Shown: one piece after another, positions 8,450 to 24,015 of the stretch
How the letters are laid out: every line of letters begins with the position of its first letter
Position numbering within the stretch: position 1 is the stretch's first letter
DNA from: an uncultured Acidobacteriota bacterium
Lineage (GTDB): Bacteria > Acidobacteriota > Thermoanaerobaculia > Gp7-AA8
Assembly (NCBI GenBank): GCA_963822445.1
Contig: CAWGHO010000001.1
Span: 1,216,001 to 1,280,000, forward strand
Direction of reading: 5' to 3'
DNA: 64,000 bases
Program-made: the position numbers and the translations under genes
The notes under the pieces: generated by a model
What the model was told of the DNA's origin: nothing
Databases searched by the model: none
What the model saw: the letters and a program-made list of their open reading frames with translations, nothing else

Positions 8450-9577
8450 ATGTACAGGGCCGCACTGCTTTTCGTCCTTCTCCTTCCCACGTTTGCATTC
8501 GCCCAGGGCCGCCGCGATGGCGACTGGCGTGAGTTTCCCGCGCAGAAAGGGTGCGTCGGCGGCAGCCGCTGCGCCGACAAGCGCTTCCGCATCGCGCTCG
8601 ATGACAGGCCGGTCATCGCCGTGCGATTCAGAGCGCATGATCAAATCGGCGAGACGGCCGGCGGCGTGTTGCGGGTGAAGATCGACGGCGACACGATCCG
8701 CGGCTACCTCGATATCCCCCGCGCCGGCGAGCTGTTCACGATCGACGTGGACGAGCTTCGCGGACGGCAGCTCGTGTTCGAGCCGGTCGCGAATGATGAA
8801 GTCGAGATCTCCGACATCGCGGTCATGTACAGCCGCGAGAATACGATCCGCCGCATCCCCGAGGCTCGTCGGGGCGGGCGGGGCGGCGGCGGACCGGGAT
8901 GGCGCTCGTATCCGAATGCCTCCGGTTGCATCGGCGGCGACGGCTGCCGCCAGAACGGCACCCGCATCACCATCCCTCTCGAAGAAGCCCCGGTCCTCGG
9001 CATCCGCTTTCACGCCCACGACAACGTCGGCAAACGCGCCGACGGCAAGCTGAGCGTGCGCATCGACGACACGACCATCGGCTGGTCGATCGACGTGCAG
9101 CGCAACGGCAAGCGCCATGACGTCGAGGTGGACAACGTCCGCGGCACGCGACTGGTGATCGAGACGGCGAACGACGACGAAGTCGAAGTCAGCGACGTCG
9201 AAGTGCTTTACGGCCGCCGCGGCGGAGTGGGCAGCAATGGCCCGCGCGAGATCGAGCACGAAGGCGGATGCATCGGCGGATCGGAATGCGGCGGCCGCCG
9301 CAATCGCATTCGCGTGGCCCTGCGCGATTACCCCGTCGAATCGATCCGCTTCTACGCCCGCGACGACGTCGGCACCAGGGCCGGCGGCGAGCTCCGCATC
9401 CGCATCGACGAGGAGATCCTCCGCGATTACCTCGACATCCCCCGCGAAGGCCGCACCTTCACCATCGACGGCAAAGGCCTGGTCGGCGAGTACCTGATCA
9501 TCGAGACGACCGAGGATGACGAAGTGGTGATCCGGGACATCAAGGTGAAGTTCGGGACGGGGGAGTACGACGATTAG
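8450..9577 (+). CDS. Secreted hypothetical protein with three ~100-aa tandem repeats
   Basis: Signal peptide MYRAALLFVLLLPTFAFA; three units GC[VI]GGxxC...RFxAxDxxG..A.G.L...ID...DEV.[IV].D. Confidence 0.8.
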   Translation: MYRAALLFVLLLPTFAFAQGRRDGDWREFPAQKGCVGGSRCADKRFRIALDDRPVIAVRFRAHDQIGETAGGVLRVKIDGDTIRGYLDIPRAGELFTIDVDELRGRQLVFEPVANDEVEISDIAVMYSRENTIRRIPEARRGGRGGGGPGWRSYPNASGCIGGDGCRQNGTRITIPLEEAPVLGIRFHAHDNVGKRADGKLSVRIDDTTIGWSIDVQRNGKRHDVEVDNVRGTRLVIETANDDEVEVSDVEVLYGRRGGVGSNGPREIEHEGGCIGGSECGGRRNRIRVALRDYPVESIRFYARDDVGTRAGGELRIRIDEEILRDYLDIPREGRTFTIDGKGLVGEYLIIETTEDDEVVIRDIKVKFGTGEYDD

Positions 9578-9888
9578 GGGCGCGGAGTTGATTGCGCGTA
9601 TCGCTACGGGCAATCCGGGTACGCGCCTGGATAAATCGCTTTTCCATTCTGGGGCGTGATCGCGTTCTGCAGGTAGGCGACTGAAGCGACAATTCCTTAG
9701 CCAGTTCAGATTGGCTTGAACACGCGCAATGATTGCAACCCCGCTCGCAAGAACCGCCTATACGTGCGACCAAAGGCGGTATGGCAGAGTGCCCATCCTG
9801 CTGCACCCGACCTTCGTAAGGCGCCGGTTTGGGCTGAGTCCCAAGGTGCACGCGTCGTACTTCAGAACAAACCGCACTTCTATACGCA

Positions 9889-9907
9889 GCCTAAATTCGA
9901 GTTATGC
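9889..9907 (+). other. attI-like integron recombination site
   Basis: GCCTAAA-TTCGA-GTTATGC has the L box/5-bp spacer/R box layout of attI1 (CCCTAAA-ACAAA-GTTRRRY) and sits directly in front of the attC array. Confidence 0.6.
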
Positions 9908-9948
9908 CGACGAACCGGAGAGTTAGCCAGACGTAAGATAAGCGACGC

Positions 9949-10569
9949 ATGAAATTGATTGCGATACTTGAATCATGGGTCATTCCCGACGGAAGTTACC
10001 CTCCATTCGCTGTCGGAATGCCGGTAAACCTGTCTTTCGAGATGGCAGTGCGACAGATCTCTATCAACGCCGCAGCTGAGGATTCGTTCGAATCGAATGG
10101 AGAGGGCGAGTACTCGTTTGCGGGCCGGGTTCTCGCAAAGTACAACGGTGGCGATCCGCTCGCGGTGGTCGAAGCAAGCGGGTTCCGCTTCTTCCTCGAA
10201 GGCACGCGCGCGCAGGAACTTCGCCCCGGTGAACGCGTTCAGGGACTAGGTTCTTTGGTGGTCGACTACTACATATGGGTCGAATACGTCAACGAACGTC
10301 GTGAGGCGCCGGACCTTTTCTACAACTTGGGCGTTCGCCGTATTCGGCGCGTCCAGATTCCGGATTCTCTCGTCAGCCGTCACGCCACAGGCAAGGCGCT
10401 TCCTGCCCGAGTCGCGCCATCGGAGTTCGGCGCAATCACCGAGTTGCAGACAATGGTCGGACAGGAATTTGACGAAGAGTTCTATCTCCTCGACCTAGAA
10501 ACGACCGATCTAGCAGTGCCGCGGACTTTCTCGGGTGAGCCCCGCGAGTTCCGCCTTGAACGCAGGTGA
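9949..10569 (+). CDS. Hypothetical protein (gene cassette cargo)
   Basis: 206-aa ORF starting 27 nt after the GTTAGCC core at 9922; visibly lower GC than flanking core genes. Confidence 0.75.
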   Translation: MKLIAILESWVIPDGSYPPFAVGMPVNLSFEMAVRQISINAAAEDSFESNGEGEYSFAGRVLAKYNGGDPLAVVEASGFRFFLEGTRAQELRPGERVQGLGSLVVDYYIWVEYVNERREAPDLFYNLGVRRIRRVQIPDSLVSRHATGKALPARVAPSEFGAITELQTMVGQEFDEEFYLLDLETTDLAVPRTFSGEPREFRLERR

Positions 10570-10624
10570 TCACGGATGAGCGTACTTGTGCGAAAATGCG
10601 TAATGCCAGCTGAGGTTCACACTG

Positions 10625-11002
10625 TTGGATTCCGCCGAGATTGAACGAGCTGTTTGGGTTGCGACAGGCGTCGCGGCAATCACCGCGGCTCTGCTCACAG
10701 TCGTTGTGTATTACCTTCAACAACTTACCGTCGCCACCACCGGCATGCGCGTGCTTGGCAGCGTTGCCGCTTTGCTTCTGTCGTTCGGCGTCTACATCTT
10801 TGCGGCAGTCGTATTTTCTATCGTCATAAACGCACAGTTGCGGCAGACGAGTTCCGAGGGAGCGTTGAGCGTGCCTTGGTCAACTGTCTTCATTCACCCA
10901 GGGCCCTTGCACAAACTGGCACCCCTCTTCGCAATAGCTGCAACTTGGGCAACTCTTGCTTTCGTCGCTAGGCGACACCGTTCGCGAGAAATCGCTGGCT
11001 AA
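10625..11002 (+). CDS. Hypothetical 3-TM membrane protein (gene cassette cargo)
   Basis: Three hydrophobic segments; TAA stop lies inside attC R'' (GGCTAAC), as is typical of cassette genes. Confidence 0.6.
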   Translation: MDSAEIERAVWVATGVAAITAALLTVVVYYLQQLTVATTGMRVLGSVAALLLSFGVYIFAAVVFSIVINAQLRQTSSEGALSVPWSTVFIHPGPLHKLAPLFAIAATWATLAFVARRHRSREIAG

Positions 11003-11934
11003 CTGTTGCGTCTCAGGACGTTGTTCCGATCCAGGCGACTGATGGGTGGATTGTAAGAGAGCGCGGTATGCGCTCGGTGGTAGTTGTAGAAGTGAAGGTA
11101 CGGTGCGAGCCAACGGCGCCGTTCCTCGGAGCTGTGGTACGAGAACCGATAGGCCCATTCGCGCAGCAGCGTCTGGATGAACCGCTCCGCTTTACCGTTC
11201 GTCCGTGGTGTGTACGGCCGGATGCGGACGTGAGTGAGGTTCAGGCGGCTGCAGGTATCCCGGAAGTCGCGTGAGATGAAGGCCGATCCGTTGTCGGTCA
11301 TCACCCGCTCGACGATGACATTCCGCTGAGCGAACCACGCCACCGCCCGAGTCAAAAACGAGCTGGCAGTCTCGCTACGCTCATCTGCCAGGACGTCGAC
11401 GTAGGAGAGTCGGGTGAAGTCATCCGTCGCGACGTACACGAACTCGAAGCCCTGCTTCTTTGAGCCAAACGATCGACGCCTGGTGATGCGGTGTCCCACT
11501 CGATTGAACCGTCCCAGGCGCTTGATGTCGATGTGCACCAGTTCCCCCGGACGCTCCTTCTCGTACCGAATTGGCACTGTTGCCGGCTCAAGCTGACGCA
11601 ACCGAGCCAGCCCTGCTGACCGGCAGATCCGCGCTGCTGTCGACGCACTCACGCCCACTGCCTGCGCGATCTGTCGCACAGTCCGCCATTCGCGGCGAAG
11701 ACTCAGAACACGCTGTCGTTTTATGTCGCTCGTGGCCCGGCCCCTGTGCGGTCTGGAGCTCCGATCGTTAAGCGGCTCGACCCTCAGACCACGACGGATC
11801 CACTCCCGCCCTCGCCGGTCACTCATACCGGCGGCCTCCGACGCCTCGCGCACCGACCATCCTTGTTCGCAGACTCGCTTGACCAGCAGTGCTCGACTCA
11901 ACGGGCAGCTTCGCGCATTCTTGTGCACGTCCAT
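10999..11934 (-). CDS. IS481-family transposase
   Basis: MDVHKNAR, PGELVHIDIK, VMTDNGSAF, PRTNGKAERF, YNYHRAH; stop codon supplied by the target duplication. Confidence 0.95.
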   Translation of the reverse strand: MDVHKNARSCPLSRALLVKRVCEQGWSVREASEAAGMSDRRGREWIRRGLRVEPLNDRSSRPHRGRATSDIKRQRVLSLRREWRTVRQIAQAVGVSASTAARICRSAGLARLRQLEPATVPIRYEKERPGELVHIDIKRLGRFNRVGHRITRRRSFGSKKQGFEFVYVATDDFTRLSYVDVLADERSETASSFLTRAVAWFAQRNVIVERVMTDNGSAFISRDFRDTCSRLNLTHVRIRPYTPRTNGKAERFIQTLLREWAYRFSYHSSEERRRWLAPYLHFYNYHRAHTALSYNPPISRLDRNNVLRRNS

Positions 11935-12037
11935 CTGGGTTCCTTCCTGTCAACCTGTTCGTTTGAGAGCTTTCAGATTGACGAAAGTCGCCCGGATGGA
12001 CAACCCGCTTCAAGGAACAACGTCCTGACACATCACA
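11004..12037 (-). mobile_element. IS481-family insertion sequence (1034 bp)
   Basis: TGT...ACA ends; 24-bp IRs TGTTGCGTCTCAGGACGTTGTTCC / TGTGATGTGTCAGGACGTTGTTCC (20/24); 6-bp TSD GCTAAC at 10998-11003 and 12038-12043. Confidence 0.95.
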
Positions 12038-12094
12038 GCTAACTACTGCCAGGAGCTGTCGGCGGGCCGTTCGCCGCGCCCGGCGGCCGAGCCG

Positions 12095-13424
12095 CATTCG
12101 CATTAAGTTAAGAGCCGGCGTACCCTAAGTGTATGAATCGACGGGTGGATGAGCGGGAGTGGATTCAGTATCAATGGGACTATCTGGTGGCGCTGCTGGG
12201 TGGCAAGCGGCGCATTGAGCGGCTGGCGTATGAGACCGGTGCATTTACGCGACGGCGGAAGGTCGATAGTCCAAGTGATCTGCTGCGTCTGATCTTCACG
12301 TGGGCGGTTGCCGAACGGTCGTTGCAAGAGACTGCGGCCTTGGCTGCCGAGTCGGAACTGGCGGATCTGAGCGCGCCCGCTCTGCTGGGCCGATTCTCAC
12401 AGGCCGAGGCGTGGCTCGGGGCAGTTCTGGGTGATCTGCTCGCTGCGCGGAGCGCGGTCACCTACCGGGTACCGACGTCCGGTTAATCGATGCCACCTCA
12501 ATCAGTTGCCGTGGCAGCAACAACACCGAGCGCCGGGTCCATCTCGCGCTGGATCTACGTACGAACCGCACCACAGCGGTCGACCTCTCTGACCGGCACG
12601 GAGGCGAGACGCTGGAGCGCTTTGTCTTTCGTCCAGGGGAGATCGTGATTGCCGATCGCGGATATGCGAAGCGTAAGGACGTTGCGCACGTGTCGCGAAG
12701 CGGTGCATGGTTTGTGATCCGGATCGGCTGGACCAACCTGCCGCTCGAGCATCTGGACGGGGAACCTTTCGACCTGATTGGAACGCTTGGCGGCCTCCCT
12801 GAGGCGGCGGCTGCAGAGTTTTCCGTTCAGATTCGTACGGCGAAGGATGCGTTGGTGCCGTGCCCTGGTGGCTGTACGGAAGAGCGAACCAGCCGCCGAG
12901 CGCGCACGGCAGCAGATCCTCGCCGACGCCCGACGGCACGGCAATCCGCAGGTCGACCTGCGCACACTCGAAGCCGCGGGGTGCATATTCGTCATCACCA
13001 ATTTGCCCAACGAGATCTCGCCGAGAGCGTGCTGGAGCTCTATCGCCTACGGTGGCAGATCGAGATCAAGTTCAAGACCCTCAAGTCCGTACTTCACCTC
13101 GGAAACCCGCCGACCCGAAGCGGCGAGCTGCTGAACGTTTATCTCATGGCGAAGCTGATCGTTGCGCTGCTGATCGAGGAGTTCATCTATCAGGCCGAGT
13201 CTATTTCCCCCTGGGGATACCCGCTCGAGGCCAATACAACCGTGGCGGCTGACGCGACTCCTGCTTGAAGCTGTGATCGCCGCAATCCGGCCAGTGCTGT
13301 CGCTGCGACTCCGCTGGAGTCGGCCCCTTCGCTGTTCCCGTCATCTTGCCCAAGCGAATAGAAGTCGACCAAACCAGCGCACGTCGGCACGCTACGTTAC
13401 TGGAGACATAAGTTAATGCGAATG
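12095..13424 (+). mobile_element. IS4-family (IS186/IS421-like) insertion sequence (1330 bp)
   Basis: IRs CATTCGCATTAAGTTA / CATTCGCATTAACTTA (15/16); 11-bp TSD CGGCCGAGCCG at 12084-12094 and 13425-13435. Confidence 0.92.
12133..13268 (+). pseudogene. IS4-family transposase, frameshifted (about 3 indels)
   Basis: IS186-like N-terminus (GAFTRRRKVDSPSDLLRL), then RLIDAT, IADRGY and YRLRWQIEIKFKTLKS; an internal segment lies in a different frame. Confidence 0.85.
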
Positions 13425-13977
13425 CGGCCGAGCCGCCTACCACGTCCCGCGATGCACGGCGTCACGCCGCTTGCAACCGCGTCAACGTCAAATGCGGCAA
13501 GCGGCGTGCCGCGACTGCTCGCTCGCACGTGGGGCCTCGCCGCAGCTCAGGCGATAGACGTTCGTCGAGAAGCACCCTTTCCATGAACGCTTCGTATCTC
13601 GCACGTTGAACGCGTGCGTGGCGCGGCGCCGCGCCCAGGCGACGCGGACGCACGACTTCCAACCGCGCACAATTCGCTCGATGAAATAGACGGAGGTTTG
13701 CGAATCGGTTCGGGCAACATGGCAAAGCGCCAAGCGCCCCATCGGTGGCATCTTCAATCTAGCGCATCTCACGCGATCACCCTACTGTCCGCATGCCATT
13801 CAAACCGCGCAATAGACGGCGACCTCTATCGTTGCGGTGGTCGCTAAGCCAGTGCGTCTATTGGTTATTCGGTCGACGAACACAAAAAGCTTAAGGTGGC
13901 TTTATGGGAGCCCGACCGCGCCTGACTCACGCCGCAGGCCGAGTGTCGGACGATCACATGCTATTCTTGATCTGCCG

Positions 13978-14511
13978 ATGCAGAGCTCGAGAGGCATAGT
14001 TGTACGTGCAGCGACTTGGGTGGTCGCGGCCTTCCTTGCTTCGGGGTTCCAATTTTCAACCTCCGCGCAGGAATCGCAGCGTCTCACGGCAAGCGATGCA
14101 TTCGCCATGTACTCATCGATGCTTGCCGAGATTTCACACGCGTCGCTCGACGACTTTAAAACTGTCATCGGCTTGCTTGAACGAGACGGCTTCCGAAAGG
14201 CGTCCGACAACTCCTGGCGTTTCCGAAACGAAAGCGGCAGCGTCGTCGTCGCCGCGTACCCAGAGCAGGGATCGTACTTTGTCTCGCTTGCGCCCAAGAA
14301 TACAGGTCCGTTCGGCGATGCTGCTCTGGCCGCCCTGATAGCCAAGGCGGAGGCAGTCATGCTCGACAGCGGCGGACAATCCATCGAGATATTGCTTCGC
14401 CGATCGAACCAGCAACGTCTTGGGAAGACCGTCGAGGTCAGCGAGTACATCTACGTCGCCCTGAATGGTGCCATCTGGTGGCGAACGTCACGCGCAATCG
14501 TATGGCGCTAA
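13978..14511 (+). CDS. Secreted hypothetical protein (gene cassette cargo)
   Basis: MQSSRGIVVRAATWVVAAFLASGFQFSTSA signal-like N-terminus; TGnTATTCT 10 nt upstream; stop 5 nt before attC 2. Confidence 0.6.
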   Translation: MQSSRGIVVRAATWVVAAFLASGFQFSTSAQESQRLTASDAFAMYSSMLAEISHASLDDFKTVIGLLERDGFRKASDNSWRFRNESGSVVVAAYPEQGSYFVSLAPKNTGPFGDAALAALIAKAEAVMLDSGGQSIEILLRRSNQQRLGKTVEVSEYIYVALNGAIWWRTSRAIVWR

Positions 14512-14516
14512 ACGCG

Positions 14517-14714
14517 GCATAACTACTGCCAGGAGCTGTCGCGGCCCGGCTTCGGTCCGCCGGCCGAGCCGGCTGCTTTTTCGCCAGAGGGACGGCGTCA
14601 CGGCGGTTGCAGGTCGCCACTCGCTGCATCGCAGTTCATTGGCGGCAACCGCCGCGCCGCTCCGGCTTCGGCGCGCGGGCCCTGGCCGCGCAGCTCAGGC
14701 GATAGACGTTAGCC
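14517..14714 (+). other. attC-like site 2 (intact, 198 bp)
   Basis: R'' GCATAAC, 5-nt spacer, L'' CCAGGAGC ... L' GCTCAGG, R' GTTAGCC; arms GAGCTG(T)CGCGGCC / GGCCGCGCAGCTC pair; inner stem CGGCGGTTGC / GCAACCGCCG. Confidence 0.88.
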
Positions 14715-14813
14715 TGACACCGAGAGAGAGCGCCAGAACTCATACTTTCGAGCGCCGCATCCCGATGACGTACTCGTGACGTAAGTCTCGGCACTCGTGT
14801 AAGATCGTTCGCA

Positions 14814-15038
14814 ATGCCACAAGCCTTCGACACCTCGCCGCGCGCAGCAGCCGTACACGCCCAGCTCTATCGTGACATCGGCCCAGCGAAGCGAGCTGAA
14901 ATCATGGCGGAGCTCAGCGACGCGCTACGAGATCTCGCTGCGGCCGGCGTCCGGCGACGACATCCTGAGTACGATGACGAGCGTGTTCGAAAAGAAGTCC
15001 TCGCGGTCTTCTATGGCCGCGGTCGAACGTCGCTGTGA
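14814..15038 (+). CDS. Small helical protein, putative antitoxin-like partner (cassette cargo)
   Basis: 74 aa (DTSPRAAAV..LYR....KRAE); GTGA overlap with the nucleotidyltransferase; TAAGAT 8 nt upstream. Confidence 0.7.
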   Translation: MPQAFDTSPRAAAVHAQLYRDIGPAKRAEIMAELSDALRDLAAAGVRRRHPEYDDERVRKEVLAVFYGRGRTSL

Positions 15039-15592
15039 GCCTCCGAGACGCTTTTCGAAACATGCGAGATGCTCTTGAGGAGCTTGGAATACCGTACATG
15101 GTGACGGGTTCCGTCGCGAGCTCCGTGCACGGTGTTCCGCGAGCTACTCAAGACATCGATGTGATCATCGAGCCGACACGTGACCAGCTAGTTGCGCTCT
15201 TAAACAGGTTTTCCGAACCAATCTACGACGCCGATCGCGACGACGCTTTGGATGCTCTCAATCGACGATCAATGTTCAGCGTGATCGATCGCAGAGGCAT
15301 ATGGAAGATCGACTTCATCGTTCGCAAGCAGCGTCCGTTCAGTAAGAAAGAATTTGACCGACGGGTGAGAATCGATATTCTCGATGTTTTAGTGTATTCG
15401 GCGACACCGGAAGATGTACTCCTTGCAAAGCTCGAGTGGGCGAAATTGGGTGAATCCGAACGCCAGATCCGTGATGCTGCAGGCATCATCGAAATTCAGG
15501 GCGAGAAGCTTGACCGTGAGTATGTGGAGCGGTGGGCCGCAGCCCTGGATATTGAGGATCAATTGCACGCAGCACGAGCAAAGGCAGGCTAA
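15035..15592 (+). CDS. Pol-beta-superfamily nucleotidyltransferase (cassette cargo)
   Basis: YMVTGSVASSVHGVPRATQDIDVII (GS + DxD), TPEDVLLAKL, RQIRDA; stop lies in attC 3 R''. Confidence 0.8.
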   Translation: MSLRDAFRNMRDALEELGIPYMVTGSVASSVHGVPRATQDIDVIIEPTRDQLVALLNRFSEPIYDADRDDALDALNRRSMFSVIDRRGIWKIDFIVRKQRPFSKKEFDRRVRIDILDVLVYSATPEDVLLAKLEWAKLGESERQIRDAAGIIEIQGEKLDREYVERWAAALDIEDQLHAARAKAG

Positions 15593-15767
15593 CTACTGCC
15601 CGAGGCTGTCGGAGAGCCGTCTGCCGCGCCCGGCGCTGAAGCGCCTCGTGAAGCGTTGCTTGCCCGCGGAAGGCCGGCCATCCCTACGCGCCACGGCGCC
15701 GAGGAGCGCGCCACGCAAACCCTACCCACGCGGAACCTCGCCGCATCTCACGCGTTAGACGCTGGAT
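15587..15767 (+). other. attC-like site 3 (degenerate)
   Basis: GGCTAACTACTGCCCGAGGCTGTCGG ... CCTCGCCGCATCTCACGCGTTAGACGCTGG, homologous to sites 1 and 2 at both ends with several substitutions. Confidence 0.7.
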
Positions 15768-15819
15768 TGCCCTCGATTCCGATAGCATCGAGCCCCGTAG
15801 CCGTCAGGGAGGGAGAAAG

Positions 15820-16986
15820 ATGACGTACCGCGTTCTTATATTCACCTTGCTCGCGCTCTGCGTGAGCGCAACCGCCGCGTCGCAGCCGGTCGTCGTCGGG
15901 CAAAGCCACCGCCTTCGTTCATCGGTCCTGAACGAAGACCGCACTTACCGCGTTCATCTTCCGGCGAGCTATGGATGGGCGAAGGATCGGCGATATCCGG
16001 TTCTGTACGTGCTCGATGGCGCGACGCATTTTCTGCACACGTCCGGGTCCGCCGGCTATCTCGCGGCGCAGGGCGAGATCCCGGAAATGATCGTGGTTGC
16101 GCTCGACAGCACCGTCCGGATCAGAGACTTCACCCAGTCGGACTGGTCGAGCGCATGGGTTGGAGGAGGGGGCGCGGCGAACTTCAAGCGCTTCCTTTCC
16201 ACCGAGCTCATTCCGAACATCGAGCGCGCTTATCGCACCAACGGGTTCCGCGTGCTGGCCGGCCACTCCGCCGGTGGACAGTTCGTCCTGTACTGCCTCA
16301 CCTCCGAGCCGTCTCTCTTTCAGGCCTACATGGCGTTCAGCCCGAGTCTCGACTGGGACGACAACCTGCCCCAGAAATCGCTGGCCAAATCGTTCGACTC
16401 GACGCGCTCGCTGAAGGCGTTTCTGTACGTCGCGCGATCGGATGATTCCGGCCGCGCATTGGAGGATTACGACCGGCTGGTGGAAACCCTGAAAACGAAA
16501 TCGCCGCAGGGATTCCGCTGGCACAGCCAGCCCTATCCTGACGAAACCCACGGCAGCATTCCTTTGCTCGCACAGATCGATGCCCTTCGCCGACTGTACT
16601 CCGGTTACCGGTTTCACGGAGACCTGGTGTCGAAGGGCCTCGACTTCGCGGAGAAGCATTTCGAAGAGGTCTCCAGGACCGTGGGATGGCCTCTGCCCGT
16701 TCCCGAAAGCGTGATCAACGATTTCGGTTACGACGCGCTGGCGGCGGGGAAAACGGAAGCTGCCATTACTCTCTTCACGCGCAACGTTCTGGCGAATCCG
16801 AATTCCGCCAACGCCTACGACAGTCTGGCGGACGCGTATGAAAAGGCGGAGAACTGGAAAGAAGCGGCAAAAGCAGCAGAGAAAGCCGCCGCTCTGGCTA
16901 TAGAGTTCGACCTTGCCAACCGGGAGTACTTCATTCAGCACGCCGCAAAAATGAAGGCCCGGCTCGAACAGGAATCGAAACCATGA
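15820..16986 (+). CDS. Secreted alpha/beta hydrolase (IroE-like esterase) with C-terminal TPR
   Basis: YPVLYVLDG, GHSAGG nucleophile elbow, ETHGS, NPNSANAYDSLADAY TPR; GGAGGGAG RBS. Confidence 0.88.
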   Translation: MTYRVLIFTLLALCVSATAASQPVVVGQSHRLRSSVLNEDRTYRVHLPASYGWAKDRRYPVLYVLDGATHFLHTSGSAGYLAAQGEIPEMIVVALDSTVRIRDFTQSDWSSAWVGGGGAANFKRFLSTELIPNIERAYRTNGFRVLAGHSAGGQFVLYCLTSEPSLFQAYMAFSPSLDWDDNLPQKSLAKSFDSTRSLKAFLYVARSDDSGRALEDYDRLVETLKTKSPQGFRWHSQPYPDETHGSIPLLAQIDALRRLYSGYRFHGDLVSKGLDFAEKHFEEVSRTVGWPLPVPESVINDFGYDALAAGKTEAAITLFTRNVLANPNSANAYDSLADAYEKAENWKEAAKAAEKAAALAIEFDLANREYFIQHAAKMKARLEQESKP

Positions 16987-17357
16987 TCAACGGCTTTCAC
17001 GGCGTTCGCTATCAGGTGAAGGATGTCGCCCGATCGATCGACTTCTACACCGAACATCTCGGCTTCAAACTGGAGCACAAGCAGCTTCCCGCGTTTGCCG
17101 CTCTTTCCCTCGGCGCGCTCCCGCTCCTGCTGAGCGGGCCCGGCGCTTCGGGCTCGCGTCTCGTCAATGGCGAGCCTCAGGAGCCGGGCGGCTGGAATCG
17201 CATCGTTCTTCGCGTTGCCGATCTTTCGTCATTCATCGAGGCCCTAAGCAAGGCCGGTCTCCGGTTTCGAGGCGAAATGCAGGTTGGCCCGGGAGGAAAG
17301 CAGATTCAATTGCTCGACCCCGACGGCAATCCGATCGAGCTATTCGAGCCGGCCTAG
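16983..17357 (+). CDS. VOC/glyoxalase family protein
   Basis: VKDVARSIDFYTEHLGF, DPDGNPIELFE; ATGA overlap with upstream gene. Confidence 0.9.
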   Translation: MINGFHGVRYQVKDVARSIDFYTEHLGFKLEHKQLPAFAALSLGALPLLLSGPGASGSRLVNGEPQEPGGWNRIVLRVADLSSFIEALSKAGLRFRGEMQVGPGGKQIQLLDPDGNPIELFEPA

Positions 17358-19631
17358 GATCTCCTGATACCTGGCCTCCCCTCGCAGCGGCTCGAACGGC
17401 GGCGAGACGCGCATGGCCGACAGCCAGTAATCGCGATTCGCATACGCCTCGTCGAGCAGCGCCGTGGCGCGGGCGCGATCGCCGAGGAGGTACCAGGTGC
17501 CCGCTCGCAAAGCGGGGGTATGGGTGATGCCGGGCGAGGTCGGGCCGAGATCCTCGAGTGTGGCGATGGCCGCGACGCGGTCGCCGGTGCGCGCGTACGC
17601 GTAGGCGAGAAACGACTTCGAGACCGGGAAGTTCCGCGATGCCGAGTAGCGAAGACCCTCGATGGCTTTCGCGTAATCGCCCGAAGCCAGCGCGACGTAG
17701 CCGCGGATGTGCCGCGGATACAGCGCGTTCGGATCGAGCTCGATGGTCTCGTCGATCTGCTTCGTCGCTTCCTCGCGACGCCCGGCGTGCACGAGCGCGA
17801 AGGCGACGTTCGACTGGATCTGCGTCGAGAACGGATCGAGCCGCGCCGCTTCCTGCATCTGTCCGACGCCCTCCTGCGCGCGGCCGACGTTCACGAGGTA
17901 GACGCCATACCAGTGATGGGCGACGGCGTAGTTCGGATTGAGCTCGAGCGCGCGGCGGAACGATCGCTCGGCGGACGGCAGGTCGAGGAGGCAACAGAGA
18001 TTCAGGTATCCGAGGGATGTGTGGGCTTCGGCGAGGCTCTCGTCGAGCTTCAGCGCCTGCCGCGCCGCGGAGACCGCGCGATCGCACGCCTGCCGCCACG
18101 GTGCCGTGCCGAGTTGCATCTGCCCGATGTACGCATCAGCAACGCCGCTGTAGGCGCGGCCATAAGTCGGGTCGGCTTCCAGGGCCTGTTGAAAGAAGCC
18201 GTGCGCCTTCGCCAGCGACTCGGCATCGCGCTTGTTCCAGAAATAGCGGCCCTTGAGATAGAGGTCCGTCGCCGCGCGGCTCTCCGTCGGTGCAGGAGGC
18301 GGCGATGTACGTCCACCGCCTCGCAACGCGCTGGTGACATCGCCGGAGATCTGGCGCTCGATGGCGAGCACGTCGTGCTCGTACTGCCTTCCCCAGAGCC
18401 GCGTGCCGTCGGCGGCGTCCACGAGCTCCGCGTCGACGAGCAGCCGCTTCCCCGAGCGCCGCACCTGCCCGGCCACGATCGCGTCGACGCCGAGCTCCTT
18501 CGCCACCGCCGGAAGCGCTTTGTCCGTGTTCTTGTAGCGAAAGGCCGTCGTTCTCGCGATGACGCGAAGATCGGGCACGCGCGAGAGATCGTTGAGTAAC
18601 GCGTCGGTCACGCCGTCGCTGAGATATTCGAGATTCGCGTCGCCGGTGACGTTCCCGAACGGAATCACCACCAGCGATTTCACGATTCGCGTCGGTGCCC
18701 TGTCCCGAAACAGCAGCGCGACCGCGGTCGCAATCACTGCGGCGGCGATCGCCAACGCCAGAACGCGCGAGCGCTTGCGTTTCGGTTCCGCGGCCGGCTT
18801 CCCCGCCAGCACTTCGCGCAGATCGATCGCGAGATCGCGCGCGGAGTGATAACGATCGTCCGGCTTCTTCGCGAGGCAGCGGCGGACGATGCGGTCGAGA
18901 GCCTCAGGATCGAGTGGCCGAGGCTGTCCGCTGACGATGTTCGAGAGGACGTCGAAGGACGACTCCCCTTCGAACGCCCGCCGCCGCGCGATGGCTTCGT
19001 AGAGGATGCAGCCCGCCGCGAAGATGTCGCTGCGCGCGTCGGCGGTTTTGCCGCGAATCTGTTCGGGCGAGATGTAGCCGGCTGTGCCGACGACGACGCG
19101 CGACTCGGGATCGAGCGGCGTCGTCGCATCGGTCGATCCTGCAATTTGCGGGACCTGCAGCTTCGCCAGACCGAAGTCGAGGATCTTCGCGTAACCGTCC
19201 GCGGTGACCATCACGTTGTCCGGCTTCAGATCGCGATGCACGATCCCCGCGGCGTGCGCCTTGGCCAGCCCCTCGACGACCTGCACGCAATAGCCGAGCA
19301 ATTCGTCGCGCGATACTTCGGGATCGTTGATCAGGTCGCGCAGGCTGCGCCCTTCGATCAGTTCCGAGACCATGTAACTCCGCCCGTCGGCCTCGCCGAA
19401 GCCGTGCACGGTGAGGATGTTCGGATGATTCAGCGCCGACGCCGCCTCGGCCTCCCGCCGGAACCGCGCCACGGCGTCCGCGTCGTTCGCCAGATATGTC
19501 GCGAGCACTTTCACGGCGACGTCGCGGCGCAGCTTCAGGTCGCGGGCGCGATAGACCTCGCCCATTCCTCCCGCGCCGAGGAACGAGACCACTTCGTAGT
19601 CGCCGAGGCGCGTGCCGGGCTCGATGCGCAT
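17340..19631 (-). CDS. Ser/Thr protein kinase with TolB-N-like and TPR domains
   Basis: LGAGGMGEVY, VAVK, HRDLKPDN, DFG, SPEQ; TM segment; SLVVIPFGN..YLSDG; TPRs. Confidence 0.93.
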   Translation of the reverse strand: MRIEPGTRLGDYEVVSFLGAGGMGEVYRARDLKLRRDVAVKVLATYLANDADAVARFRREAEAASALNHPNILTVHGFGEADGRSYMVSELIEGRSLRDLINDPEVSRDELLGYCVQVVEGLAKAHAAGIVHRDLKPDNVMVTADGYAKILDFGLAKLQVPQIAGSTDATTPLDPESRVVVGTAGYISPEQIRGKTADARSDIFAAGCILYEAIARRRAFEGESSFDVLSNIVSGQPRPLDPEALDRIVRRCLAKKPDDRYHSARDLAIDLREVLAGKPAAEPKRKRSRVLALAIAAAVIATAVALLFRDRAPTRIVKSLVVIPFGNVTGDANLEYLSDGVTDALLNDLSRVPDLRVIARTTAFRYKNTDKALPAVAKELGVDAIVAGQVRRSGKRLLVDAELVDAADGTRLWGRQYEHDVLAIERQISGDVTSALRGGGRTSPPPAPTESRAATDLYLKGRYFWNKRDAESLAKAHGFFQQALEADPTYGRAYSGVADAYIGQMQLGTAPWRQACDRAVSAARQALKLDESLAEAHTSLGYLNLCCLLDLPSAERSFRRALELNPNYAVAHHWYGVYLVNVGRAQEGVGQMQEAARLDPFSTQIQSNVAFALVHAGRREEATKQIDETIELDPNALYPRHIRGYVALASGDYAKAIEGLRYSASRNFPVSKSFLAYAYARTGDRVAAIATLEDLGPTSPGITHTPALRAGTWYLLGDRARATALLDEAYANRDYWLSAMRVSPPFEPLRGEARYQEILGRLE

Positions 19632-19688
19632 GATGTGAGATCGCGATTATGGCGAAACCGGAGCGCCGGACCCAGCATCGAAGGGCGT

Positions 19689-20327
19689 ATGGATGAAGAG
19701 CAACGCCGATTGGTGCGCAAGCATCCGCTGGCGATCCGCTGGTTTCACTGGATCAACTTCCCGCTCCTCGCGCTCATGATCTGGAGCGGGATCCTCATTT
19801 ACTGGGCGTATCCGGCCTACATCACCTTCGACCAGAAACTCTGGCGGGCGCTGGGCATCAACAACCGGCTGGCCGAGGGGATGGCGCTGCATTTCTTCTT
19901 CATGTGGCTGTTCGGCGTGAACGGCGTGCTGTACGTCGCGTACACGATCGTCTCCGGCGAATGGCGCGAGCTCGTTCCGCGCCGCGGTACGTTGCGCGAA
20001 GCGTGGCAGGTCGTGCTGCACGACCTGCGGATCCGCAAGGAACCTCTGCCTCGGAAGAAGTTCAACGGCGCGCAGCAGATCGCCTACACGTCGGTGGTGC
20101 TCATGGGATTCGGCTCGCTGGTGAGCGGCCTGGCGATTTACAGGCCGGTGCAGTTCGCCTGGCTGGCCTGGATGTTCGGCGGATACCAGGGCGCGCGGCT
20201 CGTGCACTTCCTGCTCACCGTCGGTTACGTCCTCTTCTTCATCGTGCACATCGCCCAGGTCGTGCGCGCGGGATGGAACAACTTCCGGGCGATGGTCATC
20301 GGCGTCGAGGTCGTGAATGAGCGATGA
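19689..20327 (+). CDS. Cytochrome b/b6-domain membrane protein
   Basis: RWFHWINF, ALHFFFMW, KFNGAQQIAY, RLVHF..FFIVHI haem-ligand histidines. Confidence 0.85.
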   Translation: MDEEQRRLVRKHPLAIRWFHWINFPLLALMIWSGILIYWAYPAYITFDQKLWRALGINNRLAEGMALHFFFMWLFGVNGVLYVAYTIVSGEWRELVPRRGTLREAWQVVLHDLRIRKEPLPRKKFNGAQQIAYTSVVLMGFGSLVSGLAIYRPVQFAWLAWMFGGYQGARLVHFLLTVGYVLFFIVHIAQVVRAGWNNFRAMVIGVEVVNER

Positions 20328-21046: not shown

Positions 21047-21105
21047 CGACCTCCCGTCACCGCCTCCCGGCCCCTTTCCATGCTAATGTCGTTGGGGTCC
21101 CAACG

Positions 21106-24015
21106 ATGTCCGCTCCGCTCTCGCGCAGGCTCTATCGCGCGGCTTTGCCGTGGGTGGCGATTGCCGTGCTCATGAGCACGGTCAGTGTCTTCGCCGCGGA
21201 GCGCGGCTTCCCCCTGATCACCGTCTATCCCGCCGAGATGCACAAGGCCGGGCCGCAGACCTTCGACATCGCCCAGGATCCCGAGGGCGTCCTCTATTTC
21301 GGCAACCTGCACGGTCTCGTGATTTACGACGGCGCCTGGTGGCGGCTGCTCGAATTGCCGGACGATCAGGTCGCGCTCTCGCTGGCCACCGACGACAAAG
21401 GCCGCCTGGCCATGGGCCTGGTCAACGACCTCGGATATCTCGCCCGCGACGCCAGCGGCTCCCCCATCTATCGCTCGCTGCTCGAGCAACTTCCCGGCGA
21501 TCAGCGCGAGCTCGGCGACGTCCGCGACGTCTGCACCACGGCGGCCGGCTTTCTGTACGTCGCCGAGCGCAGTCTGATCCTGTGGGACGGCGCGAAAGCA
21601 TCGGTGGCCGCGACGTTCGAAGGCGACTCCGCACCGCGCGGCTGCTCGTCCGAAGGCGGCAACGTTCTCCTCCGCGGACCGAAAGGCATTCATCGTTTCG
21701 ATCCGCGGGCGCGCAAGGTCACGCCGACCGCCGTCACCGATCCCGTGGAGCTGATTCTTCCCCGCGCTGATGGAAAGCTCGTCGCCGTCGTGCGCGACAA
21801 AGGCGTCTTTCTCATCGACGGCGACACGGTCACTCCCTGGTCGCCGGCCGCAACGGCCTGGCTGAAGGGCGACGTCGCCAGCGGCGGCGCACGCCTGCAC
21901 GACGGACGGCTGGTCATCACCTCCCGCCAGCACGGCCTGGCGATCCTCGACGCGAACGGCGAGATCGAACAGATCCTGCGCGACACTGCCGGTTTGCCGG
22001 ACTCGGTCATCACCGAGGCGCTGGTCGACCGGGAGGGGTCGCTGTGGGTGGCCATGGAAGGCCCGATCGTCCGCGTCGACGTCAGCTCGCCGGTCTCGGT
22101 GTTCGATGCGCGCCGCGGCATGAAGGGCGGCGCGATCGACGTGACCCGCTTCAACGGCCGTCTGTACGCCACGACGTCGTACGGACTGCACGCGATCGAC
22201 GCCGACGGCCACGCCCGCGTCATCAAAGGCATCAGAGGAGCGACCTGGCGTCTGCTGCCGTTCGATGACGAGTTGCTCATCGCGAACACCAAAGGCATCT
22301 GGATCATGCGTGCCGACGAGAATCCGAAGCTGATCGTCGAGCGCGATGGCGAGCTCTCCGACTTTTACCGCTCCCGCGTCGATCCGTCGCGGGTCTGGCT
22401 CGCCGAGCGGCACGGCATCTCCGCGCTTCGCCGCACCGCCGCGGGCTGGCAGTACGAGCCGGTGATGAAGGGCATGCCCCAGTACCTGTCGTCCGTGCTC
22501 GAGCACGAGGGTGTGCTCTGGTGCGGCTCGGTATTCAACGGAATCGTCCGCGTGGATGACCCGCGCGGACCCAAGCAGCGCGTGCAGCAGTTCGGCGACG
22601 GGGAAATGAATGTGTTCATCGCCGGCGGCCGGCCGGTGTTCGTCCGCGCGCGCGGCGAGATCGTCGCCATCGGCAACGGCGGCAAGCTCGTCCCCGATCC
22701 CATCCTCGGCCGCATCACCGCCCCGCGCGGATTCTTCGTGCTCGCCGAAGATGCCCGCGGCAATCTGTGGATCAACTCCACACCGCCGCGCGTGATCGAG
22801 CGGACCGCTAACGGGTATGCCGAGGATGGCAAGCCGCTGGTCTCGGTGACGGCGGCGGACATCCAGACGATCCGCGCCCATGCCGACGGCGTGGTCTGGT
22901 TCGCGTCGGACAAAGGCCTTTTCCGCTACGACCCTGCCGCCGCGAAGACTGCCGTGGCCGCGCAACCCGCGCCGATGATCCGCCGCGTCGTGGCCGGTGA
23001 AAACCGCCTGCTCTTCGGCGGCGTCGGAACGGGCGGCGACATCGAGCTTCCCCACAACTTCGGACGCATGCGCCTCGAGTTCGCGCCGGTTTCCTATCGT
23101 CCCGGCGTCGAATACCAGTACCGCCTCGATCCGATCGACGAGGACTGGAGCGAATGGACCGCGCAGCCGTTCATCGACTACACCACCCTCGCCGCGAACA
23201 AATACGTCTTCCGTCTTCGCGCTCGCGGCGCGGGCAACGCGGCGAGCAAGGAAGAGCAGTGGTCGTTCTCCGTGCGCGCGCCCTGGTACAGCACCGGATG
23301 GGCGAAGGCGCTCTGGACGATTCTGGCGATGGCGCTGATCGCGCTGATCACCTGGATGCGCACCGGGACTCTGCGCCGGCAGGCGGAAACGCTTCGCGCG
23401 CGCGTCGCGGAAAAGACGGCGGAGTTGCAGCAGACCGTGAAGCTGCTCGAGCAGGCCAACACGCAGCTCGAGGCGCTTTCGCTCGAGGATGATCTGACCG
23501 GCATCGCCAACCGGCGGTCGTTCGAGCGGGCGCTTTCCGAGGAGTGGAATCGCGCGAAGCGGCACGAGCATTCGCTCGCGCTGATTCTGTTGGATCTCGA
23601 TTACTTCAAAGACCTCAACGATCGCCGCGGACATCCTGCCGGCGACGACTGTCTGCGCCGCGTCGGTGCCTTTCTCGCCGAAACGATCCGCCGCAGCGGC
23701 GAAGTCGTCGCGCGTTACGGCGGCGAGGAGTTCGCGATTCTTCTGCCCGGCGTCGATGCCGAAGGGGCGATTCGCGTCGCTGAGGTATTGCGGGCGGGAA
23801 TCGAGAACCTGGGCGTGCCGTACGGACAAGGCCATCGCCGCGTGACTGCGAGTTGCGGGGTCGCCGCGCTCGTGCCCGTGCAGGAGCTGACCGCGGAGAG
23901 TCTCGTCGCCAGCGCCGATCGTGCGCTGTATGCCGCGAAGCACAGCGGGCGCAATTGCGTCCGCGTCGCCGATGAGACGACCACCGGTACCTGGTTACGT
24001 GATGTGAGTGCATGA
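21106..24015 (+). CDS. Diguanylate cyclase with periplasmic beta-propeller/Y_Y_Y sensor
   Basis: Signal peptide, propeller repeats, EYQYRL..DWSEW..YTTL..Y.FRLRAR, TM, DDLTGIANRR, RYGGEEF, ADRALYAAKHSGRN. Confidence 0.9.
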   Translation: MSAPLSRRLYRAALPWVAIAVLMSTVSVFAAERGFPLITVYPAEMHKAGPQTFDIAQDPEGVLYFGNLHGLVIYDGAWWRLLELPDDQVALSLATDDKGRLAMGLVNDLGYLARDASGSPIYRSLLEQLPGDQRELGDVRDVCTTAAGFLYVAERSLILWDGAKASVAATFEGDSAPRGCSSEGGNVLLRGPKGIHRFDPRARKVTPTAVTDPVELILPRADGKLVAVVRDKGVFLIDGDTVTPWSPAATAWLKGDVASGGARLHDGRLVITSRQHGLAILDANGEIEQILRDTAGLPDSVITEALVDREGSLWVAMEGPIVRVDVSSPVSVFDARRGMKGGAIDVTRFNGRLYATTSYGLHAIDADGHARVIKGIRGATWRLLPFDDELLIANTKGIWIMRADENPKLIVERDGELSDFYRSRVDPSRVWLAERHGISALRRTAAGWQYEPVMKGMPQYLSSVLEHEGVLWCGSVFNGIVRVDDPRGPKQRVQQFGDGEMNVFIAGGRPVFVRARGEIVAIGNGGKLVPDPILGRITAPRGFFVLAEDARGNLWINSTPPRVIERTANGYAEDGKPLVSVTAADIQTIRAHADGVVWFASDKGLFRYDPAAAKTAVAAQPAPMIRRVVAGENRLLFGGVGTGGDIELPHNFGRMRLEFAPVSYRPGVEYQYRLDPIDEDWSEWTAQPFIDYTTLAANKYVFRLRARGAGNAASKEEQWSFSVRAPWYSTGWAKALWTILAMALIALITWMRTGTLRRQAETLRARVAEKTAELQQTVKLLEQANTQLEALSLEDDLTGIANRRSFERALSEEWNRAKRHEHSLALILLDLDYFKDLNDRRGHPAGDDCLRRVGAFLAETIRRSGEVVARYGGEEFAILLPGVDAEGAIRVAEVLRAGIENLGVPYGQGHRRVTASCGVAALVPVQELTAESLVASADRALYAAKHSGRNCVRVADETTTGTWLRDVSA

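Follow-up and report, generated by a model that had tools for sequence, protein, structure and literature searches.

Groups of clustered attC sites that have no integron integrase (CALINs) are cassette arrays of debated origin, with integrase loss, rearrangement and ectopic insertion all proposed. Insertion by the integron integrase, IntI, at secondary or attG sites (5'-GWT-3') is documented in a preprint by Loot et al. (10.1101/2022.09.11.507474), which, like PMC4889954, describes CALINs arising by insertion at such sites; PMC4889954 also discusses all four of the routes considered here, and places about half of the described CALINs in genomes that encode IntI elsewhere. We analysed a 64-kb stretch of DNA (the window; C1:1216001-1280000, positions without a prefix counting from its first letter) from the 6.0-Mb genome of an uncultured Acidobacteriota bacterium (G000), assembled in three contigs (C1, C2 and C3), and find that positions 9901-15769 are a CALIN belonging to a sedentary chromosomal integron of this same genome: three clustered attC sites with no integron integrase in the window, the sole IntI over cut-off lying on C2 and not, as in a complete integron, beside an attI and this array.

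The window array resembles the CALINs of PMC4889954 in having three attC sites less than 1 kb apart once insertion sequences (ISs) are discounted, co-oriented cargo, no nearby intI, and an IntI encoded elsewhere in the genome; it differs from them in its ~200-bp attC sites, its attI-like left half-site and its nested cassette. The parent element on C2 is akin to sedentary chromosomal integrons such as the Vibrio cholerae superintegron, with at least 86 cassettes and homogeneous, species-specific attC sites, whereas the window array lies outside the parent element and has no intI. The C2 intI is co-oriented with its cassettes, as in the 'inverted integrase' group named in PMC4889954.

The array is organized around three ~200-bp repeats (10995-13568, split by ISs; 14515-14716; 15585-15769), separated by gaps of 947 and 870 bp and the only matches in the window to an nhmmer profile built from 74 sites. 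A preliminary description of this DNA had reported that the repeats share start and end motifs and follow stop codons, and its account is borne out: exact copies of the start motif TAACTACTGCC stand at 12040, 14520 and 15590, and at up to two mismatches it has eight matches (3.17 expected); the end motif has exact copies at 13541, 14689 and 15742 (three matches against 0.11 expected); and none of 100 shuffles reached either count. The TAA stops of the open reading frames (ORFs) 10625-11002 and 15035-15592 fall within the ..CTAAC box, and that of ORF 13837-14511 sits 3 nt ahead of the box of its repeat. The split start that had been proposed for the first repeat (10997/12044) is real, an IS481-family IS sitting in the box with a GCTAAC target duplication, and the cargo is indeed co-oriented, all five ORFs lying on the + strand. 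Three 9-mer pairs said to link cassette starts with cassette ends are likewise in place, each a perfect (9/9) reverse complement: GTTATGCCG (9901-9909) with CGGCATAAC (14515-14523), GTTAGCCAG (9922-9930) with CTGGCTAAC (10995-11003), and GTTAGCCTG (14708-14716) with CAGGCTAAC (15585-15593). As had also been stated, no integrase accompanies the array: the integron integrase model TIGR02249 has no match inside the window, and tblastn with the genome's IntI recovers no relic between 5000 and 20000 (best E 0.83). Searches of 9000-17500 for Rfam families (E≤0.1), and of 9400-10100 for a sigma-70-like promoter or a terminator, found none.

An integrase is encoded on C2. TIGR02249 scores 456.4 bits (cut-off 265) at C2:2118113-2119048, a frame of 321 aa without stops whose residues 15-319 align with the solved Vibrio IntI (2A3V) at E 2e-93; the remaining eight matches in the genome reach at most 87 bits, and none of 14 control genomes scanned alongside exceeds the cut-off. 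The integron to which this gene belongs spans C2:2118092-2226594 (~107 kb), with a median cassette of 1132 bp; its first cassette begins at C2:2119405, the attI crossover, 348 bp past the intI stop, and is preceded by GGGTCGAAATAGAA. Genome-wide, at a cut-off of E≤1, the nhmmer profile gives 143 matches, 100 of them full length, and 86 of these lie beside intI at C2:2120562-2226594. Counted as an 11-mer, the repeat motif has 67 copies in this genome, where the reversed control has 0 and 2, and at most one in each of the other 34 genomes of the genus, so that the motif is specific to this genome; IntI itself is over the cut-off in 20 of the 35 (a tally that includes the unpublished G002 and G041).

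The C2 integron also provides a measure of how cassette starts and ends correspond. The start of a cassette (GTT plus six bases) is a 9/9 complement of the R'' 9-mer of that same cassette in 81 of 85 cases, and in 79 of 85 the complement is perfect for 9 nt and no further; controls that pair sequences of the same site, or cassette n with n+2, yield 19/86 and 17/84, and three of the four exceptions carry the IS481-family IS that also interrupts the first window repeat. This agreement validates the three 9-mer pairs of the window, and with them the rule of complementary cassette starts and ends on which the preliminary description relied, and it supplies a template for interpreting the window. 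Taken together, the intact IntI, the 86 attC sites of the same family and the complement rule make a CALIN loaded in trans the best reading of the array. The preliminary description had left the choice between an integrase acting in trans and one since lost; the genome has not lost its integrase, an intact IntI being present on C2.

The window repeats are attC sites of the same family as those of the C2 integron. The 5' inverse core AAC and the 3' core GTT are invariant in 86 of 86 main-array sites and present in the first two window sites, attC1 and attC_X, while the third, attC_3, reads GCT for GTT. An L-box triplet is complementary in 96 of 100 full-length sites, with three covarying states (GCC/GGC, CAC/GTG and GTG/CAC), and the hexamer adjoining it in 94 of 100, with six states. 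The unpaired bases fall on the same arm throughout: a constant asymmetry of 2 versus 1 nt, and one more base whose identity varies. Given the bottom strands of attC_X and of 22 of the 86 array sites (23 in all), RNAalifold predicts 36 pairs, 14 of them with compensatory changes, whereas all 74 aligned sites folded with DNA parameters returned only a fragment of structure; the bottom strand of attC_X is predicted to form one long imperfect hairpin (-67.5 kcal/mol). Measured from the R'' 9-mer through the R' 9-mer, these sites are 191-205 bp long (median 201), longer than the usual attC length of about 57-141 bp. Once both ISs and one copy of each target duplication are deleted by script, attC1 scores 147.8 bits over profile positions 2-201, like intact sites, and is 93.7% identical to C2-array attC; attC_X (14515-14716, bounds that take in the next R' box) reaches 152.4 bits and 94.6% identity. 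At 82.3 bits and 77.2%, attC_3 has diverged further, its L-box triplet and hexamer both not complementary.

On its left the array ends exactly at G|TT, with the crossover G at 9901, and adjoins non-attC DNA, no attC-like sequence being found in 9580-9900 (nhmmer, E≤1). We scored the 12 nt ahead of the crossover (GCCTAAATTCGA, 9889-9900) with a 12-position matrix of attI left halves, taken from the first GTTRGSC-type junction downstream of intI in ten related genomes, six of which validate the crossover by a 9-nt complement followed by an attC-like start 700-1093 bp downstream. Among all 132,399 genomic GTT sites, the fraction scoring as high is 5.3e-5 with the ten-relative matrix, 9.8e-5 with all eleven sites in the matrix, and 4.7e-4 with the seven validated sites. 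The suggestion of an attI-like site is supported by this left half, which across the three matrices is among the best-scoring 5e-5 to 5e-4 of GTT sites; the right border of the array is not attI-like and does not resemble an R box. The 350 bp left of the border show no extended homology with the attI region of the resident integron or with the other ectopic borders (z≤1.8), sharing nothing beyond those 12 nt, so that the left border appears to be attI-like in its left half only.

Between these borders the complement pairs delimit three cassettes, all on the + strand. Cassette 3 (14709-15761) carries ORFs 14814-15038 and 15035-15592 and attC_3 (15585-15769), and is bounded by the 14708/15585 complement. 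Cassette 1 (9923-13560) carries ORFs 9949-10569 and 10625-11002 and attC1, the latter in three pieces (10995-11003, 12044-12095 and 13437-13568), and is bounded by the 9922/10995 complement. Both obey the complement rule at 9/9 and have AC at positions 10-11, as do 71 of 86 native C2 cassette starts (A at position 10 in 78 of 86). The middle attC departs from this pattern: its R'' (CGGCATAAC at 14515) mismatches the junction that precedes it, GTTCGTCGAGA at 13560, where the bases at positions 6, 9, 10 and 11 are found in 0, 0, 1 and 2 of the 86 native starts. A 9/9 complement is obtained only with a 21-nt stub at 9902-9922, which begins TTATGCCGAC and follows the 9901 crossover, where GTTATGCCGAC has the native AC. 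Since the R'' at 14515 fits the sequence at 9901 and not the junction at 13560, the simplest reading is that cassette X consists of 9902-9922 plus 13561-14708, the latter segment holding ORF 13837/13978-14511 and attC_X, and that cassette 1 is nested within it.

On this reading, which we put forward with good confidence, cassette 1 would have entered at a plain G|TT that lies 21 nt into cassette X. The G at 9922 is the G of that secondary G|TT site, and the right junction of cassette 1, GACG|TTCGTCGAGA, has neither a complement nor the native start pattern. The site itself, GAG|TTC at 9922/13560, is not attI-like (about half of GTT sites score as high as site 9922, a fraction of 0.48-0.53) and has no attC profile match, and it fits GWT. 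To this extent cassette 1 looks like the attG insertions described in 10.1101/2022.09.11.507474, with G|TT on both sides and a site that is neither attC nor attI-like; it differs from them in that the target lies inside another cassette, that the outer border of the array is attI-like, and that the evidence is that of sequence.

We infer a series of IntI insertions in trans, their order and nesting included. In this scenario, the resident IntI would have placed circular cassettes into an ectopic double-stranded site, GCCTAAATTCGA|GTT, which in its left half is like the attI simple site of the genus; cassettes 3 and X would have entered at this attI-like border, and cassette 1 afterwards at the secondary, attG-like G|TT inside cassette X. 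The two ISs that split attC1, one of them of the IS481 family, would have come later, as would the decay of the terminal attC. With two ISs in attC1 and a decayed last attC, the array is probably no longer able to exchange cassettes. That the resident IntI built the array in trans at an attI-like ectopic site we regard as probable overall.

Several observations weigh against this account. The attI-like signal consists of 12 AT-rich nt, and the matrix behind it holds 10 or 11 sites, the crossovers of four relatives being unvalidated as their contigs end first. At the right border of the array, GACG|CTGGATTG, both a GTT and an attI-like R box are lacking, which prevents reconstruction of the ancestral target; and the ~10-kb island in which the array lies (below) is missing at the same position in the six relatives' loci examined, so that, with a right flank that is not syntenic, no empty target site can be read. 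Nor is an uninterrupted cassette X found in public collections: the cassette X protein (13978-14511) has no relative by tblastn in metagenome and genome contigs, and the exact 22-mer of the stub has 0 matches in both collections, from which the window's own genome records may be absent. Ten short contigs of soil metagenome run X1, the one run listed (share of words 0.05; 85% likeness), cover the IS481-like IS and attC_X only and span no joints, and are uninformative on excision or on IS-free forms.

Among other explanations, the one that fares best, while still unlikely, is that a second complete integron once stood here and left the array as its relic, with a true attI whose upstream intI was deleted. 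The attI-like left border would suit it, as would the 324 bp between that border and the upstream gene's stop, a spacing inside the 81-502 bp range that separates intI stop and crossover in G000 and ten relatives. That upstream gene (8549-9577), however, is a conserved gene, syntenic in 23 of 24 same-genus genomes (including the unpublished G002), no intI relic is found between 5000 and 20000 and no TIGR02249 match in the window, and the 320-bp spacer is unlike the genome's own intI-attI spacers (z≤1.8) and those at 15 relatives' loci (best E 0.18).

We consider it less probable again that the array is a piece of the big integron brought here without IntI, through IS-mediated or homologous rearrangement. 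PMC4889954 names the splitting of integrons by ISs among the routes to CALINs, and the big integron contains a copy of the IS481-family IS with 100% identity to the one in attC1; yet both ISs lie inside the array and not at its edges, each with its own target duplications, the cargo occurs nowhere else in the genome, and the left border falls exactly on a cassette crossover beside non-attC DNA, an outcome not expected of a random break. That the repeats are instead a dispersed family unrelated to integrons, resembling repetitive extragenic palindromes or miniature inverted-repeat transposable elements, is barely credible: about 14 full-length copies, along with several fragments, do lie outside the main array, on all three contigs, but 86 of 100 full-length copies form one co-oriented array beside intI, the R-box complement rule is cassette-specific and the L boxes covary, and the motif is species-specific, with the genus-wide counts given above. 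Insertion by the resident IntI in trans remains the reading we prefer.

The two ISs that interrupt attC1 differ in kind. The first (11004-12037, - strand; transposase 10999-11934, with NF033577 at 263 bits against a cut-off of 224 and the Pfam families LZ_Tnp_IS481 and rve) belongs to the IS481 family and is flanked by GCTAAC at 10998-11003 and 12038-12043. It has four genome copies of 99.9-100% identity, the others at C2:2203359-2204392, C2:2211840-2212873 (-) and C2:2220435-2221468. All four occupy the same position of an attC R box (R'' in three cases, R' in the fourth) and face the same way with respect to the CTAAC target, each with a 5-6-bp (S)CTAAC duplication. It looks like an attC-targeting IS from a family not known for such targeting; IS481 at attC sites or integrons is not addressed in the titles or abstract openings among the literature matches listed. 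Mobile elements known to target attC include the IS1111-attC elements and the group IIC-attC introns, with which the element here shares the target and from which it differs in IS family. The second IS (12096-13423, + strand) is present in a single genome copy, its DDE transposase (PF01609, DDE_Tnp_1; E 7e-11) in broken frames (12133-12486 and 12645-13268), with a 13-bp target duplication at 12083-12095 and 13424-13436.

Little of the cargo can be assigned to a family. ORF 15035-15592 matches the Pfam nucleotidyltransferase family DUF6036 at 24.8 bits (cut-off 23.6); for the other four cargo ORFs no Pfam family passes the threshold, and NCBIfam gives no match to any of the five. In cassette 3 (14814-15592) a 74-aa ORF overlaps the DUF6036 nucleotidyltransferase ORF by 4 nt, a layout reminiscent of the toxin-antitoxin pairs common in chromosomal integrons. 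Separately, GCGCATCTCACGCGAT at 13763-13778, in the long 5' region of cassette X, has 13 nt (CGCATCTCACGCG) in common with attC_3 at its L' end (15742-15754). The attC profile has no match at 13763-13778, and the shared stretch may be due to chance or left over from an older attC.

Further observations concern the parent integron. Twelve small C2 cassettes (among them C2:2155132-2155419, 2162299-2162587 and 2177681-2178450) have a ~290-bp cargo with 72-100% mutual identity (median 83%) and an attC subfamily of their own (AACT CAC AG CAGCTG), and no clear ORF can be distinguished in their GC-rich DNA. For the first cassette we inspected loci L072, L075 and L077-L079, from relatives G042, G049, G004, G013 and G006; the attC start TAACTTTGGTGTGAAGC is common to G000 and to G042, G006 and G049, which suggests that the cassette adjoining attI is conserved across species.

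In its genomic setting, the array is the left part of a ~10-kb variable island (9580-19718), because the gene to its left is conserved and because, at six relatives' loci, synteny picks up again beyond it, at 19719 or at about 21080-21200. In relative G016 the conserved blocks are only about 50 bp apart, and none of the six loci has an attC match. The G+C of the island is lowered (0.53-0.62 against about 0.67), and it also carries an esterase, a glyoxalase-family gene and a Ser/Thr kinase.

Arrays or single attC sites of the same family occur elsewhere in the genome, at C1:96612-99548, C1:228367, C2:479967-481862 (-), C2:492846-494824 (-), C3:1333651-1337129 (-), C3:1356219-1357417 and C3:160125 (-). 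Two of these arrays, with borders at C2:481862 and C2:494824, begin at attI-like half-sites (fractions of GTT sites scoring as high of 1.3e-4 to 9.7e-4 across both), so that, counting window 9901, three of five ectopic array borders are in the top 1e-3 of GTT sites; the other two stand at about 1e-2 (C3:1337129) and about 0.6 (C1:96612). A tentative possibility, which we hold more loosely than the insertions themselves, is that the integrase uses scattered attI-like half-sites (K/C-TAAAT-N3-A|GTT) as repeated landing pads, forming a distributed, multi-platform integron in which the window array would have taken up cassettes on at least two separate occasions.

The array is thus a known kind of element whose insertion footprint is unusually legible. 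The standard detection tool has a default attC size limit of 200 bp; with attC sites of ~200 bp, close to that limit, an integron of at least 86 cassettes such as this one may be under-called by routine annotation. For the debate on how CALINs arise, the window array reads as a clean natural footprint of cassettes inserted ectopically by a resident integrase, in a lineage that is environmental and not clinical, marked by a border set exactly at the crossover beside non-attC DNA, an attI-like half-site, and a cassette nested at G|TT. Should the scattered half-sites indeed act as landing pads, one intI would serve several satellite arrays.

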